Assembly: GCA_020355085.1 (NCBI GenBank)
Contig: CP070657.1
Span: 1,166,615-1,201,900, forward strand
Direction of reading: 5' to 3'
Source: Deltaproteobacteria bacterium
Lineage (GTDB): Bacteria > Desulfobacterota > DSM-4660 > Desulfatiglandales > B25-G16
Length of the DNA: 35,286 nucleotides
Position numbers and translations under genes: made by a program. Shown here in pieces: positions 23,028 to 29,004 of this stretch; positions within the stretch are counted from its first letter, which is position 1, and every line of letters starts with the position of its first letter. The notes below the pieces were generated by a model. It saw only the letters and a list, made by a program, of their open reading frames with translations. It was not told the DNA's origin and ran no database searches.

Positions 23028-24449
23028 ATGACCCAAATCAAAGATGATCTGACGATTGAAGAACTTCGGAAGGTTATGAGTTACCTGAAGGACGGTGACC
23101 GTCATCAAGAAAACGTGGCTGATGCTGTTCATACGCTTCTGCAGAGACCTGAAAACGTATTCTATAGGGATTTGGGACACGGTAGGGGCTTGTGGATTGC
23201 CAGGAATAACACAATCATATGCCCCAGGACTCCGAAACCAACGGCCTGGTATCTCGGTGGCTGCAGGTGGAAAGAGTATAATAGCGAGAGTGACGCAGAA
23301 GCAGACGTGAGAAACCTTGCCAAAGGCATGAGCTACAAATGGGCGGTACTTAACCTGATGTATTCGATGATGGCACTGGAAGGCAGAGCGGAAATAGAGG
23401 AGGTGAGAGCAACCAGGATTGGCGGAGGGAAATCCGTCATCTTCGAGCCACATCGCAATACGCAAAACTTCTCTCGAGCTGGCCAGCCGTTGTCTGATTT
23501 GGAAAAGGCAGTATTGCGAGATAAGGTTGTGCCAGTGATTCTTGGGCTTGTTCAATACATATTCGCGCCGGACATGGGAACCCGCACAGATCATGTGTGC
23601 TTCGTAGGAGAATATGCCCCTAAAAATGCTGTCTGTTTATCCTTGGAAAATGGGGGGTCCGGCGACCCTTCCTTGATTACCGCTCGAGGTGTGTATGAGT
23701 CAATGCTAGAATCCGTCAGCTACCAGCTAGACAGGGACGATCTCAATGGCCTGACCATCGCTATGCAAGGCGTCGGCAAGGTCGGTTCGCCGCTCATGGA
23801 ATACATTGTTCACGATTCCCCCGGCGTAGAGTTTATCCTCGCCGATGTCGATAAGACTAAAATTGAAGAAAAGCTAGGCGCTCTGCGGGCCAAGGGTATA
23901 AAGGGACGACAGATTGAACCGAATGAGATCTATGACCAGCAGTTCGATGTCTTCAGCCCCAATGCCATGGGACAAATCGTCAACCCTTCTACAGTCAGGA
24001 GGATGATTAAGGCAAACCCCAAGAAAAAGCTCCTTATCGTTGGGGGTGCTAATAACCAAATAGACGACAGGCACAGGGGAAGCAAGAAAGAGGTGGAAGG
24101 GTTACTGAAGCAGTCCGATATACTCTATGCCCCCGACTTCGTGGTAAATCTTGGCGGGATACTGAACTTGATATACGAGTTCCCAACGGTGAAAGCCGTG
24201 TTCGGGGGAACGTACAACCCTCAGAGACCTTTAGAGGTTATCTCCGGCGTAAGGCCAATTCTGAAGGAGATATACGACCGGAGTAGGAAATTGCGTCTGT
24301 CTACACAGGGAATCGCCGATCGGCTCGCTGAGGAACAAATCGCACGATGGGCACTCTATTACGGATTTGGCCCCGATGACCTGATGGAAAGGAACTACCT
24401 GGTTGATTTATTGCCGACGAATTCCGGGAATACTGTTCCAATCGCTTGA
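23028..24449 (+). CDS. Divergent Glu/Leu/Phe/Val dehydrogenase-family protein
   Basis: 'GGCRWKEY', 'AKGMSYKWA' and 'GGGKSVIF' (catalytic Lys), 'APDMGT', Rossmann 'MQGVGKVG', 'VGGANNQ' and 'APDFVVNLGG'. There is an N-terminal extension of about 50 aa and an insertion of about 17 aa before GGGK. GAGGAGGTG RBS. Confidence 0.75.
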   Translation: MTQIKDDLTIEELRKVMSYLKDGDRHQENVADAVHTLLQRPENVFYRDLGHGRGLWIARNNTIICPRTPKPTAWYLGGCRWKEYNSESDAEADVRNLAKGMSYKWAVLNLMYSMMALEGRAEIEEVRATRIGGGKSVIFEPHRNTQNFSRAGQPLSDLEKAVLRDKVVPVILGLVQYIFAPDMGTRTDHVCFVGEYAPKNAVCLSLENGGSGDPSLITARGVYESMLESVSYQLDRDDLNGLTIAMQGVGKVGSPLMEYIVHDSPGVEFILADVDKTKIEEKLGALRAKGIKGRQIEPNEIYDQQFDVFSPNAMGQIVNPSTVRRMIKANPKKKLLIVGGANNQIDDRHRGSKKEVEGLLKQSDILYAPDFVVNLGGILNLIYEFPTVKAVFGGTYNPQRPLEVISGVRPILKEIYDRSRKLRLSTQGIADRLAEEQIARWALYYGFGPDDLMERNYLVDLLPTNSGNTVPIA

Positions 24450-25429: not shown

Positions 25430-25772
25430 GACGCTTGTACTTAACCGAATTGTGAGTGAAATGCAAGTCATCAAAGATCGAACAATCGTGTAATTGGGCA
25501 CTTCGAAAATTACTGAGAACAAATGCGCCGTGCCCTCCAACCTGCAGAAATAGCAAACGCGGGCTCAGGTTGTATTCGGCGTTGGTGTGGAGCAGGGTTT
25601 TTTATTCAACGGCTGAGTCTTTTCTCTTGAACTCCACACTACACCTTGAGTATCGTAAAGATCAAACGAACGGCGATTCCCGCCAGGAATCTTTCACAAC
25701 CAGGGGCAGGAGGAGGGTATGCCGAGAAGTCTGCAGGCTTTAGGACAAACGGCCAAAGAATAGGGGGTAACT

Positions 25773-26186
25773 ATGGCAATAAAGCATTTATTGAGCATCT
25801 TAACACTATCAGCAGTGGTCCTGCTCTGGGTCTTCACCGCTACAGCAGCGACTTCGGATGATGTGCCCCGAATGAGTGCTCAGGAACTGAAGGGGCTGCT
25901 CGGCTCTGCTGACGTCATCATTCTGGATGTGCGCACAAGCAGAGACTTGGAAAGCAGCACATCTACCATCAAGGGGGCAATCAGGGCAGACCCGCAGGCG
26001 TTTGACACATGGGCAGATACCTACCCGAAAGACAAGACACTTGTCTTGTTCTGTGCCTGAACCAACGAAGGCACCAGTGCCAGGCTGGCACGGAAACTAA
26101 TGGACAGAGGTTTTTCAAAAGTCTATGCCCTGAAGGGAGGTTGGCGCGAATGGTCTGAGGCCGGGTATCCAATTCAAGGAAAGTGA
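25773..26186 (+). CDS. Exported single-domain rhodanese with an in-frame TGA (26058-26060) at the catalytic position: candidate selenoprotein or pseudogene
   Basis: Signal peptide 'MAIKHLLSILTLSAVVLLWVFTATAA'. The rhodanese N-terminal half ends '..KTLVLFCA' at the TGA. The same frame continues 'TNEGTSARLARKLMDRGFSKVYALKGGWREWSEAGYPIQGK' to a TGA at 26184-26186. The ORF track reports only 25773-26060. Confidence 0.65.
26074..26093 (+). promoter_or_regulatory. bSECIS-like hairpin 14 nt downstream of the in-frame UGA
   Basis: CC(A)GTGCC-AGGCT-GGCACGG gives 7 bp with a bulged A and a G-containing apical loop. Its position relative to the UGA fits bacterial SECIS geometry. Confidence 0.4.
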
Positions 26187-26259
26187 TTGTATCCTGTGTT
26201 TCTTCTCGTGCTGCAAGTTGCGCGCTCCTTGGAGCCTTTCCGGTTATCTCTCATACCTC

Positions 26260-26300
26260 TTTACTGGGCAAAATAAGTGATTATATACAGTTTATCACTT
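26260..26300 (+). promoter_or_regulatory. Promoter (TTTACT-N16-TATATA) overlapped by a 7-N12-7 palindrome AAGTGAT..ATCACTT
   Basis: The palindrome at 26275-26300 spans the -10 hexamer directly upstream of iscU, making it a candidate repressor operator (Rrf2/IscR-type is only a guess). Confidence 0.35.
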
Positions 26301-26317
26301 AAATGGAGGCGACGGTT

Positions 26318-28384: not shown

Positions 28385-28506
28385 ACTAAAAGACACAAGA
28401 TATATGGAGTCATTTCGTGACAGCCATTGGCCTGTCAGGATCTGATTTCACCATTTCTCGGGCAATGGGTAAAAACCTTAGCCGCAGTATGAGGAGGGGC
28501 AATAAA

Positions 28507-29004
28507 ATGAGTGAGTATTGTGTTGTAGTTACCGGTGGGGCGCGTGCGCGCTTCTTTACCTTAGAACCGGTGGAGCACCCCGAGTTGGAATCAGGGCCCA
28601 GACTGATTGAATGCGGGGAACTCTGTAACCCTCAAAAGGAGATCCCAAGACGGGACATTTATGCCGAGCCGAAGACCGGCCGCCATCGAGCTCCCCGTGG
28701 AGGCCCTACCCATGGCTATGACGACCACCGGTCTCAGCATGAAGACGAATTCGATCGCCGCTTCGCCCATGAAGTCATGGTGGAAGCGAGGCGTTTCGTA
28801 CACGCAAACCAGGCCCGCTGCCTGGCGCTCGTAGCGCCCCCCCATATCCTTGGAATGATCCGCAGCGACCTCCAGAACATTCTCAAAAGGGGCATGGTGG
28901 TACAGAAATTATCTAAGGATATGTCCAAGTTTTCACCCAGAAAGATTCATGAGCATCTTGCAAGACAGCAGGTGCTCCCGCCGCGCAGGAGGCCAGGCGT
29001 ATAA
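28507..29004 (+). CDS. Host-attachment protein family (Host_attach / baeRF-like)
   Basis: 'YCVVVTGGARARFF', 'RRFAHEVMVEARRF', 'LALVAPPHILGMIRSDL' and 'KLSKDMSKFSPRKIHEHL' resemble the PF10116 pattern (vaDGxxARxf ... rFaxxva ... LxxxAxPxxLGxLRxxL ... KDL). The ATG at 28507 follows GAGGAGGGG. Confidence 0.55.
   Translation: MSEYCVVVTGGARARFFTLEPVEHPELESGPRLIECGELCNPQKEIPRRDIYAEPKTGRHRAPRGGPTHGYDDHRSQHEDEFDRRFAHEVMVEARRFVHANQARCLALVAPPHILGMIRSDLQNILKRGMVVQKLSKDMSKFSPRKIHEHLARQQVLPPRRRPGV

Follow-up and report, generated by a model that had tools for sequence, protein, structure and literature searches.

An in-frame UGA at the catalytic position of a deltaproteobacterial rhodanese gene is very probably recoded as selenocysteine

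Introduction

The window analysed here is a stretch of 35,286 nucleotides from contig CP070657.1 of a deltaproteobacterium, and it contains an open reading frame for a rhodanese that is interrupted by a TGA, after which the same frame goes on. The question raised by this locus is whether the TGA is a nonsense codon in a decaying gene, an error of sequencing, or a codon that is read through, and in the last case which amino acid is inserted. Recoding as selenocysteine (Sec) had been proposed in the initial annotation, which was made from the sequence alone. As that annotation had stated, Sec-containing rhodaneses are known from selenoproteome surveys of deltaproteobacteria and of marine samples (PMC1088965, PMC1976440, PMC9312934, PMC13188914). 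The CxU form of the family has been reported since 2005-2007, a UxU variant is included in PMC1976440, and the family is listed among the "predicted" selenoproteins in reviews (PMC9312934). The comparisons presented below indicate that positions 25773-26186 are very probably one intact gene, in which UGA is recoded as Sec and which encodes an exported selenoprotein of the LYCAU/CxU rhodanese family, with a single domain.

Results

One reading frame across an in-frame TGA

The upstream open reading frame runs from the ATG at 25773 to the TGA at 26058-26060 and ends in "...KTLVLFCA*". Beyond this TGA, 41 codons (26061-26183, TNEGTSARLARKLMDRGFSKVYALKGGWREWSEAGYPIQGK) are open in the same frame and are followed by a second TGA at 26184-26186. 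Translation confirmed both the end of the first frame and the 41-codon tail that had been annotated, and the spacing of 17 residues between the TGA (residue 96) and the conserved GF was also confirmed (G113-F114). The read-through product has 137 aa and comprises a whole rhodanese domain. The features of the gene are listed in Table 1.

Table 1. Positions in the window of the features of the Sec-rhodanese gene and the basis for each
Feature	Positions	Strand	Basis and remarks
Shine-Dalgarno-like AGGGGG	25762-25767	+	5 nt 5' of the ATG; read from sequence
Whole selenoprotein gene	25773-26186	+	137 sense codons including Sec codon 96, plus stop; translation, PF00581, NF041203
Predicted Sec-type signal peptide, residues 1-25, A-T-A site	25773-25847	+	probable cleavage point
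Cys94 codon TGT, C of the CxU motif	26052-26054	+	TGC/TGT in 82/85 copies
UGA for Sec96, catalytic-Cys column	26058-26060	+	TGA in 81/82 distinct orthologs; Cys in distant homologs
41 post-Sec codons: active-site loop TNEGTS, helix, KGGWxEW block	26061-26183	+	in frame, conserved in all orthologs
SECIS hairpin, local fold: 8 bp with A26076 bulged and an A-U pair closing the loop GGC	26074-26093	+	RNAfold
Conserved SECIS core: 26077-26081 paired with 26087-26091; loop 26082-26086 (AGGCU), invariant G 26083	26077-26091	+	82-sequence comparison, RNAalifold
True terminator, TGA	26184-26186	+	no hairpin behind; read from sequence

Since TGA is one base away from TGC or TGT, a sequencing or assembly error could have created it in an ordinary Cys-rhodanese gene. 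However, the gene is nucleotide-identical in two assemblies from independent SRA runs (L002 and L003), the copy on the complete chromosome CP070752.1 differs by one synonymous base and keeps the TGA, and the same TGA is present in about 80 other genomes, so that the probability of such an error is negligible.

Conservation of the TGA, the downstream codons and the catalytic column

For the comparison, 82 distinct gene copies from 80 species-level genomes, mostly of Desulfobacterota and Nitrospirota and with 45-86% identity, were used as the ortholog set; the loci were found with the tight alignment (A2), not with the broad alignment (A1). The column of codon 96 was TGA in 81 of the 82 copies. 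The same TGA column followed by an in-frame tail of 40-42 codons recurs at 45-86% identity, which, judged by sequence comparison, is far more than chance. The tail had exactly 41 codons in 72 of 83 copies and 40-42 codons in 80 of 83. The variability at the first, second and third positions of the post-TGA codons was 0.19, 0.16 and 0.43, respectively, indicating purifying selection on the 41-codon tail and confirming that it is conserved in frame. Residues E+3, T+5 and S+6 were invariant (82/82), and the KGGW motif was invariant or nearly so.

The placement of the UGA at the position of the catalytic Cys, first proposed from residue spacing, was reproduced by a MAFFT alignment and by a phmmer alignment to PDB 6mxv. 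The two agree in aligning the TGA with the catalytic Cys residues found in P0103, P0105 and 6mxv. Cys was found at this column in the distant homologs P0035, P0091, P0095 and P0099, in the form YC(A/S)C, and for the first two of these proteins TGC was verified there in the DNA (Cys-form genes L084 and L087). The column thus carries TGA or Cys in relatives, as expected for a Sec codon. In two relatives a different sense codon replaces the TGA, TTA in L062 and CAA in L089, indicating that Sec is not strictly indispensable.

At the -2 column (Cys94), 82 of 85 copies have TGC or TGT, and the other three (L030, L066, and L073) have TGA and are UxU variants. The consensus of the motif columns was Y (80/82), C (79/82), A (63/82) and stop (81/82); the present copy reads L-F-C-A-U (26046-26060) and conforms to the (L/F)(Y/F)-C-x-U motif.

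A covarying hairpin downstream of the UGA

A hairpin with 7 bp and a bulge had been annotated at 26074-26093. A SECIS-like and covarying hairpin does exist there at the expected distance from the UGA, but the local fold has 8 bp with one bulged A (CC-a-GUGCCA-GGC-UGGCAC-GG) and an MFE of -10.2 kcal/mol (RNAfold, local 30-nt stretch). The conserved part is not the whole 26074-26093 stem but a 5-bp core with a 5-nt loop, 26077-26091. This core starts 19 nt 3' of the UGA, and its loop starts 21 nt downstream.

The fold energy of the single sequence is unremarkable (z = -0.77, 71-nt stretch), so the significance of the hairpin comes only from the comparative data. Across the 82 sequences, 99% of cells were paired, compensatory changes were present in four of the five pairs, and 27 cells were double-compensated; none of 500 shuffled controls reached the observed pairing and covariation values, and the identical helix was predicted by RNAalifold. 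The pair at alignment positions 21-33, which joins two synonymous third positions, was UA in 54 sequences, CG in 22, UG in 6 and CA in none. The covarying third positions are those of Ser AGY and Ala GCR (Ala is GCC in 78/82). The loop G (G26) was invariant in 82/82 although the encoded residue varies among R, S, G and W.

Published criteria for bacterial SECIS elements (PMC13188914, Fig. 2 legend) are a loop of 3-9 nt, a stem of 4-16 bp, a G in the first two loop positions, a spacing of 16-37 nt and an MFE of -7.5 or lower. The hairpin described here falls within all of these ranges, with a stem of 5-8 bp, a loop of AGGCU or GGC, a spacing of 21-22 nt and -10.2 kcal/mol. Among the 82 orthologs, the loop pattern N1-G-[G/U]-N-N2 was found in every copy, and the MFE was at or below -7.5 kcal/mol in 74, while 8 missed this value. 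The helix was broken in both Cys-form genes checked (L084 and L087).

Like the bacterial SECIS consensus (bSECISearch model, with E. coli fdhF as archetype), the hairpin is a stem-loop within the coding sequence just 3' of the UGA; it departs from this consensus in the shortness of its conserved helix (5 bp) and in the lack of an Rfam match, and it may be regarded as a candidate SelB target. No Rfam covariance match was obtained at the gathering score in the whole window, and at E<=10 the stretch 25950-26250 gave two chance lncRNA matches alone and no SECIS. To our knowledge, most bacterial SECIS types are not covered by Rfam, so the absent match says little.

These data bear on the possibility that the locus is a pseudogene or a truncated gene, with the TGA as a nonsense codon, a 95-residue fragment or nothing being made, and the downstream frame decaying. 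Such a reading would accord with the 95-aa product that is called for nearly all homologs and with the lack of visible Sec machinery in the window. It is contradicted by the retention of the "nonsense" codon in all but one of the 82 copies across several phyla, by the purifying selection on the downstream codons and their common stop, and by the constraint on downstream synonymous sites that maintains the hairpin. In addition, the 95-aa fragment would be without the active-site loop and half of the fold, and it scored 95.9 bits against NCBIfam model NF041203, below the cut-off of 115. The pseudogene reading is effectively refuted by the comparative data and is left with very little probability.

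Decoding of the UGA and the Sec machinery

If the codon is read through, it might still be decoded as something other than Sec, either in a reassigned code (as Trp or Gly) or by a near-cognate Trp or Cys tRNA stimulated by the hairpin. Some database entries (P0031-P0034) show W at this codon, and no Sec machinery was seen in the 35-kb window or in 20 kb of CP070752.1, both of which would suit such decoding. However, the W residues of P0031-P0034 are TGA in the DNA, so that W reflects the caller's choice of code. UGA is also used as a normal stop, terminating this gene itself, 33 of the 83 family genes (the others ending in TAA, 30, and TAG, 20) and 12 of 20 long open reading frames in the window, which indicates the standard code. 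Furthermore, the column alternates with Cys and never with TGG in relatives, the hairpin, with its invariant loop G, conforms to the bSECIS consensus of the SelB type, and in L054 the ortholog has a tRNA-Sec gene as a neighbour. Decoding as an amino acid other than Sec is therefore highly improbable.

In the two regions surveyed (the window and 20 kb of CP070752.1), the genes sought were those for tRNA-Sec, selA, selB and selD, and a scan for TGA-split frames together with NCBIfam and Pfam searches of about 30 open reading frames found no second selenoprotein or sel gene in the window. When ARAGORN was applied to the window and all loci, one tRNA-SeC was detected (L054:11165-11261), 5 kb from the ortholog at that locus, and no selA, selB or selD was found beside it. 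A tblastn search with E. coli SelA and SelD probes gave a single match, in L053 (25% identity), which was rejected because it was without the N-terminal Cys/Sec motif of SelD; this protein looks like a generic member of the AIR-synthase family. Among the orthologs is a locus of the Olavius Delta 1 symbiont (L041), for which a large selenoproteome has been documented (PMC1976440).

Recoding of the in-frame TGA as Sec is supported by four observations: the UGA is conserved, it pairs with Cys in homologs, the tail is under selection and the hairpin covaries. By this mechanism, the hairpin (core 26077-26091, loop N-G-[G/U]-N-U) would act as a bacterial SECIS for the UGA at 26058-26060 and would recruit SelB-GTP-Sec-tRNA(Sec) to the ribosome, leading to insertion of Sec at residue 96. 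Another 41 codons would then be translated before the real stop, a UGA without a hairpin behind it. As the nucleophile, Sec96 would be the first residue of the active-site loop of the rhodanese, U-T-N-E-G-T-S, and Cys94, at the end of the central β-strand, would be its likely selenenylsulfide partner, forming a putative C94-U96 redox pair.

Family membership, fold and predicted export

With Cys placed at residue 96, the product matched the Pfam rhodanese family PF00581 over profile positions 1-101 of 102 (E=2.3e-14; 54.1 bits, cut-off 22.2). Against NF041203 ("rhodanese_LYCAU, rhodanese-related (seleno)protein"), which is a curated equivalog model, it scored 178.3 bits (E=4.2e-53, profile 4-126/126), well above the cut-off given above, and by this profile match it is a member of the CxU Sec-rhodanese family. 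The CxU motif, Sec in the catalytic column, the size and the taxa (Deltaproteobacteria/Desulfobacterota) are shared with NF041203, and the sole difference is the motif LFCAU in place of LYCAU, Phe at -3 being present in 2 of 82 copies. Passing this curated model means that the family is already known and that no novelty is involved. The statement in the initial annotation that such proteins had been "predicted" was correct in that the surveys describe the family, but it understated the case, since a curated equivalog exists.

Other Sec-rhodaneses are forms 1, 2 and 4 (with UxxS or UxxG) and TsoB, a rhodanese/DsbD fusion (NF045694; PMC13188914). They likewise combine the rhodanese fold with a Sec that lies within the active-site loop or close to it, but their motifs and architectures differ from those found here, and the match to TsoB was weak (25.9 bits against 805). 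The UxU variant reported from delta symbionts of Olavius algarvensis (PMC1976440, Fig. 3A) belongs to the same family, whereas the present copy has Cys (TGT) at -2.

In an AF2 model of P0035, a family member of the Cys form, the domain had a pLDDT of 89-97, with a strand at 92-97, a loop and a helix at 103-114, and the equivalent of Cys94 was the last residue of the central β-strand. When this model was submitted to Foldseek, the matches listed were rhodanese domains, GlpE and the periplasmic Sud among them. E. coli GlpE (1gmx), PspE and Wolinella succinogenes Sud (1qxn) have the same fold, with Foldseek target-normalised TM-scores of 0.62-0.77, and share the nucleophile position and the loop length (nucleophile, five residues and Ser/Thr). 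They differ from the present protein, in which Sec would replace the Cys nucleophile and an additional vicinal Cys is present at -2. In contrast to the basic or neutral C-R-x-G-x-R/T loop of Cys rhodaneses, an invariant Glu is found here (U-x-x-E-x-T-S), making thiosulfate a less obvious substrate. The score against the GlpE model NF001195 was 26.9 bits with a cut-off of 102, and no PspE model was matched in the NCBIfam profile search, the loop U-T-N-E-G-T-S not being of the CxxGxR/S type. The protein shares the GlpE/PspE fold and is outside both families.

The N-terminus, MAIKH-LLSILTLSAVVLLWVF-TATAA, consists of a basic n-region, a 16-residue hydrophobic core and an Ala-rich c-region. The signal peptide that had been annotated for this copy is a feature of the family, since nearly all of the 81 family N-termini are organised in this way, and a lipobox is present in at least 12; in the modelled homolog, the N-terminal ~30 residues formed a lone helix of low pLDDT. 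Export, as far as it can be predicted from N-terminal sequences, is supported by the presence of signal peptides or lipoboxes throughout the family, and the signal peptide would send the protein across the inner membrane. Sud and PspE are periplasmic. The enzyme, which is comparable to them, would most likely function in periplasmic sulfane-sulfur transfer or thiol-redox chemistry.

Gene neighbourhood

The genes downstream of the rhodanese might point to a different role, as a cytoplasmic protein that would take persulfide or selenide from a cysteine desulfurase in a relay of sulfur or selenium. The rhodanese gene lies 117 nt upstream of genes for NifU (TIGR03419, 198.8 bits) and a NifS-type desulfurase on the same strand, no terminator or promoter-like site was detected in the intervening DNA, and rhodanese-desulfurase relays exist in other systems. 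However, this neighbourhood is common to the two closest relatives (L001 and L004) alone among about 80 loci, and the predicted signal peptide together with the lipoboxes of relatives, from which the protein is expected outside the cytoplasm, is at odds with cytoplasmic NifU and NifS. A partnership with nifU-nifS is accordingly quite unlikely. A functional link to nifU/nifS, to the HAD hydrolase or to the GDH-like neighbours was rejected, as tblastn against all loci recovered the arrangement in L001 and L004 only.

Across the family, a divergent, uncharacterised permease of the APC superfamily (10-12 TM) was found directly upstream of and co-oriented with the Sec-rhodanese gene in 19 of 77 genomes, belonging to Syntrophobacteraceae, Desulfobulbales, Nitrospirota and one Anaerolineales MAG, with gaps between the two genes of mostly -4 to ~70 nt. 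It is conceivable, though on balance doubtful, that this permease and the exported CxU selenoprotein, as its partner in the periplasm, make up a two-component module for uptake or detoxification of a sulfur, selenium or metalloid compound. No description of a module of permease and CxU selenoprotein was found in the Sec-rhodanese literature cited here. The permease is absent at the present copy, which would be a stand-alone version if the module exists.

Discussion

The in-frame TGA of this locus is best explained by Sec recoding in a selenoprotein family that is already described, and in this respect the initial annotation was correct but the finding is ordinary; known principles are unchanged by it. 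Its value lies partly in annotation. Most of the 106 database homologs are calls of 88-96 aa, and all 17 truncated calls that were retrieved end one residue before the TGA column, bearing out the statement that these genes are routinely mis-annotated as truncated. For this gene and the majority of its database homologs, the call is a "hypothetical" protein of 95 residues or a truncated rhodanese, while the correct product would be a 137-residue selenoprotein precursor, and such miscalls will persist in automated pipelines without exceptions of the NF041203 type.

For the biology of the family, the gene adds one further member to a large family of selenoproteins, predicted to be exported, in anaerobes that are sulfate reducers, syntrophs or Nitrospirota. 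A starting point for biochemistry is provided by the data collected across the family, which comprise the covariation of the SECIS at synonymous sites, the invariant loop U-x-x-E-x-T-S, the N-terminal signal peptides or lipoboxes, and the linkage to the permease.

The UGA codon at the catalytic position of the rhodanese

The initial annotation had described an open reading frame that ends at an internal TGA and stays open in the same frame for 41 more codons, and this agrees exactly with the sequence. The features of the gene and of the related loci are listed in the table below. With Cys placed at residue 96, the 137-residue read-through product covers the full Pfam Rhodanese profile (PF00581, E=2.3e-14, profile positions 1-101 of 102). 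The proposed position of the TGA at the catalytic Cys was borne out both by a MAFFT alignment with the canonical rhodaneses P0103 ('VYCRSGGRS') and P0105 ('VYCRSGRRS') and by a phmmer alignment to crystal structure 6mxv ('yfyCgggfrS').

Coordinates of the features of the Sec-rhodanese gene, its surroundings and related loci (L, loci of relatives; other positions refer to the window)
Feature	Position	Strand	Remark
Shine-Dalgarno-type AGGGGG	25762-25767	+	precedes ATG; read from sequence
ORF start ATG	25773	+	sequence
In-frame TGA	26058-26060	+	after '...KTLVLFCA'; sequence
41 further in-frame codons	up to second TGA	+	TNEGTSARLARKLMDRGFSKVYALKGGWREWSEAGYPIQGK; translation
Folded hairpin	26074-26093		CC-a-GUGCCA-GGC-UGGCAC-GG
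Conserved hairpin stem	26077-26081 with 26087-26091	+	alignment columns 20-24 with 30-34
Second TGA, end of extended frame	26184-26186	+	sequence
Inverted repeat	26274-26281 / 26294-26301		TAAGTGAT-N12-ATCACTTA
ELFV-dehydrogenase-like gene	23028-24449	+	473 aa
Host_attach/release-factor-like ORF	28417-29004	+	PF10116, PF18856
APC-superfamily permease (examples)	L009:8591-9901, L030:6024-7313, L054:4493-5788		and 16 further loci
tRNA-SeC	L054:11165-11261	-	anticodon TCA
UxU codons	L030:7626-7634, L066:10262-10270, L073:10268-10276		LY-U-x-U
Sense codon in Sec column	L062:2590-2592		TTA, Leu
Sense codon in Sec column	L089:787-789		CAA, Gln; protein P0028
Paralogous Sec-rhodanese genes	L058:2938, L058:10259		7 kb apart
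Gene call with Trp for TGA (example)	L088:501-914

Conservation of the UGA codon across relatives

The protein search retrieved 106 homologs, the majority called at 88-96 residues, and all of the truncated calls fetched (17/17, 40-100% identity to the query) stop at the residue preceding the TGA column. A genome scan with one genome per bacterial species gave 461 relatives, of which the best 80 loci were analysed. These were labelled mostly Desulfobacterota/Thermodesulfobacteriota ('Deltaproteobacteria'), with 8 Nitrospirota, 1 NC10 and 1 Anaerolineales, and the nearest relative among them was a Desulfatiglandales MAG (86% identity). The codon in the Sec column was TGA in 81 of 82 distinct gene copies, the window gene included, and TTA in one. 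Downstream of it, 40-42 codons were open in 80 of 83 copies, with a common stop after ...YP(T/V)E(P/K)K, and variability at the first, second and third codon positions was 0.19, 0.16 and 0.43, a pattern typical of a sequence that is translated and under selection. The remoter full-length homologs P0035, P0091, P0095 and P0099 carry Cys in the Sec column (YC[A/S]C), and TGC was confirmed in the DNA for two of these four. By sequence comparison, the gene is thus intact, with a UGA conserved at the nucleophile position and Sec paired with Cys in homologs.

A sequencing error was excluded as the origin of the TGA by this conservation, by two independent read-set assemblies in which the gene is nucleotide-identical, and by the complete chromosome CP070752.1, which differs from it at one synonymous base. 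A recent nonsense mutation was likewise excluded because the TGA column, the selected downstream frame and the Cys homologs all speak against it. Reassignment of UGA was also ruled out: the window gene itself ends in UGA, as do 33 of the 83 family genes, and among the 20 longest open frames of the window UGA is the stop codon of 12. One mRNA therefore holds two UGAs of different meaning, and a local feature must tell them apart.

Several individual sequences depart from the common pattern. The public gene calls P0031-P0034 show Trp at the Sec position where the DNA has TGA, the source having used a different code, and such entries can falsely suggest a Trp variant in alignments. The sense codons of L062 and L089, both with the SECIS hairpin intact, may stem from recent inactivation or from errors, or may mark non-catalytic variants. 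In P0090, Arg replaces the Cys two residues before the Sec position. The Deltaproteobacteria MAG at L058 has two paralogous genes, both with TGA and hairpin, and the hairpin of L058:2938 shows a compensated C-G to U-A pair.

A covarying hairpin downstream of the UGA

The hairpin that had been proposed downstream of the UGA was recovered by folding, while the single-sequence fold of the 71-nt stretch was statistically unremarkable (z = -0.77). In an ungapped alignment of 60 nt from the UGA (82 genes), a hairpin with a 5-nt loop lies at a fixed position. Standard pairs made up 99% of cells, compensatory double changes occurred in 4 of 5 pairs, none of 500 column shuffles attained the observed values, and the signal was lost when the partner was slid by 1-3 nt. 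Unguided RNAalifold returned the identical helix. One pair joins the third positions of a Ser codon (AGU/AGC) and an Ala codon (GCA/GCG); it is U-A in 54 genes, C-G in 22, U-G in 6 and C-A in 0. The other Ala is GCC in 78/82, two genes with UCU for Ser carry a compensating G opposite, and G occupies the second position of the loop in 82/82, though the codon containing it encodes R, S, G or W. These patterns indicate that the constraint acts on nucleotides rather than amino acids, which is the strongest point for a predicted SECIS element.

In the published bacterial SECIS model (PMC13188914, Fig. 2 legend), the stem has 4-16 bp and the loop 3-9 nt, a G falls within the first two nucleotides of the loop (pattern N1-G-[G|U]-N-N2), the spacing from the UGA is 16-37 nt and the MFE does not exceed -7.5 kcal/mol. 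The window hairpin agrees with this model in all four respects (spacing 21 nt, MFE -10.2 kcal/mol); across the family, the loop pattern was present in 82/82 genes, and 74/82 reached the MFE limit. A covarying SECIS-type hairpin at the correct distance is thereby established at the level of sequence. At the equivalent positions, the two Cys-form genes have lost the pairing. No Rfam family matched the hairpin, a search uninformative for bacterial SECIS elements.

Family membership, fold and predicted export

The read-through product scored 178.3 bits (profile 4-126 of 126) against NF041203 (rhodanese_LYCAU, rhodanese-related (seleno)protein), an equivalog model with a cut-off of 115 bits, and the truncated 95-residue call scored 95.9 bits, under the cut-off; this profile match places it in a curated selenoprotein family. 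The motif of the 82 genes is K-D-K-T-[LI]-V-[LF]-Y-C-A-U-[PT]-N-E-[GA]-T-S-A, with Glu+3, Thr+5 and Ser+6 (relative to Sec) invariant, and the sole peculiarity of the window gene is Phe, not Tyr, at -3. P0035, a Cys-form member, was modelled with AlphaFold (domain pLDDT 89-97); in the model, the -2 Cys is the final residue of the central beta-strand and the Sec-equivalent Cys lies in the short loop ahead of the next helix, the standard rhodanese active-site geometry. The Foldseek matches listed for this model are rhodanese domains, among them GlpE and Sud, a polysulfide-sulfur transferase of the periplasm. A rhodanese fold is established.

Nearly all members have a basic, hydrophobic, Ala-rich N-terminus ending just before the conserved (D/E)(V/A)PRMTKEELK, and at least 12 of 81 N-termini contain a lipobox. 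Given this shared layout and the lipoboxes, both read by inspection of the sequences, the N-terminal export signal pattern is established, and the initial annotation's prediction of an exported protein therefore holds family-wide. In three loci (L030, L066 and L073), TGA also replaces the -2 Cys codon, so that two Sec codons are served by one downstream hairpin; this UxU form matches the variant reported for Olavius symbionts (PMC1976440).

Genomic context

The window gene is flanked by a HAD hydrolase gene in divergent orientation and by the nifU-nifS pair on its own strand, an arrangement that it shares only with its two closest relatives. Because it is rare and topologically odd for an exported protein, the nifU-nifS neighbourhood was rejected as a functional unit. 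The 117-nt gap before nifU showed no promoter-like or terminator-like site. A perfect 8-nt inverted repeat just 5' of the nifU start looks like a putative operator for a dimeric regulator of nifU-nifS. The third ORF past the Sec-rhodanese gene, some 400 nt beyond nifS, matches Host_attach and the bacterial archaeo-eukaryotic release-factor family 12 and is conserved only in the two closest relatives; its closeness to a recoded UGA is probably a coincidence. The ELFV-dehydrogenase-like protein is extended at its N-terminus by a long segment, gives only weak matches (Trp dehydrogenase ScyB, 142.7 bits, cut-off 600) and is conserved together with the HAD hydrolase in close relatives. tRNA-Sec, selA, selB, selD and a second selenoprotein gene were not found in the window or the 20 kb of CP070752.1 read.

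Across the family, only one neighbour recurs: a divergent permease of the APC superfamily (~430 aa, 10-12 predicted TM segments). In 19 of 77 loci, spread over several phyla, it immediately precedes the Sec-rhodanese gene on the same strand; the window lacks it. The gaps are mostly -4 to about 70 nt, and the pair looks like an operon. PF13520 was matched by 5 of 16 permease members (best E-value 1.3e-21), with neither a curated NCBIfam model nor a PDB relative found. At L054, a tRNA-SeC gene lies ~5 kb downstream of the Sec-rhodanese gene of that MAG, near uvrB, rmuC, dusB and ispH, with no selA/B/D adjoining.

Proposed mechanism and relation to known Sec-rhodaneses

In bacteria, Sec is inserted when SelB binds the SECIS loop and brings Sec-tRNA(Sec) to the UGA. 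By analogy, SelB would bind the loop of the window hairpin and Sec-tRNA(Sec) would decode the internal UGA. The predicted signal peptide would be cleaved at about A25/A26, and Cys94 and Sec96 probably form a selenenylsulfide redox pair; the UxU variants indicate that both positions are chemically active. The enzyme probably performs periplasmic sulfane-sulfur transfer or thiol-redox chemistry. A simple thiosulfate:cyanide rhodanese is disfavoured by the acidic, invariant Glu of the active-site loop.

As the initial annotation stated, selenoproteome surveys already record Sec-rhodaneses: 'rhodanese-related sulfurtransferases' with Sec were listed for the Sargasso Sea in 2005 (PMC1088965), the Olavius symbionts yielded Sec-rhodaneses and the first UxU variant in 2007 (PMC1976440), and later catalogues give 'COG0607 form 2, CxU' (PMC9312934, 2022) and 'form 3, NF041203, CxU' (PMC13188914, 2026). 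The Olavius delta-1 symbiont, source of ortholog L041, has a large published selenoproteome, with 8 genes for rhodanese-related selenoproteins counted over the symbiont metagenome (PMC1976440). This, like the tRNA-SeC gene at L054, lends indirect support to Sec decoding in carriers of the gene. The original observation is thus confirmed and its Sec-rhodanese interpretation supported; the feature is already known, and the gene in the window is an ordinary representative of the CxU (Cys94-x-Sec96) family. The remaining interest lies in the correction of its annotation and in the linkage of Sec-rhodanese genes to the permease.
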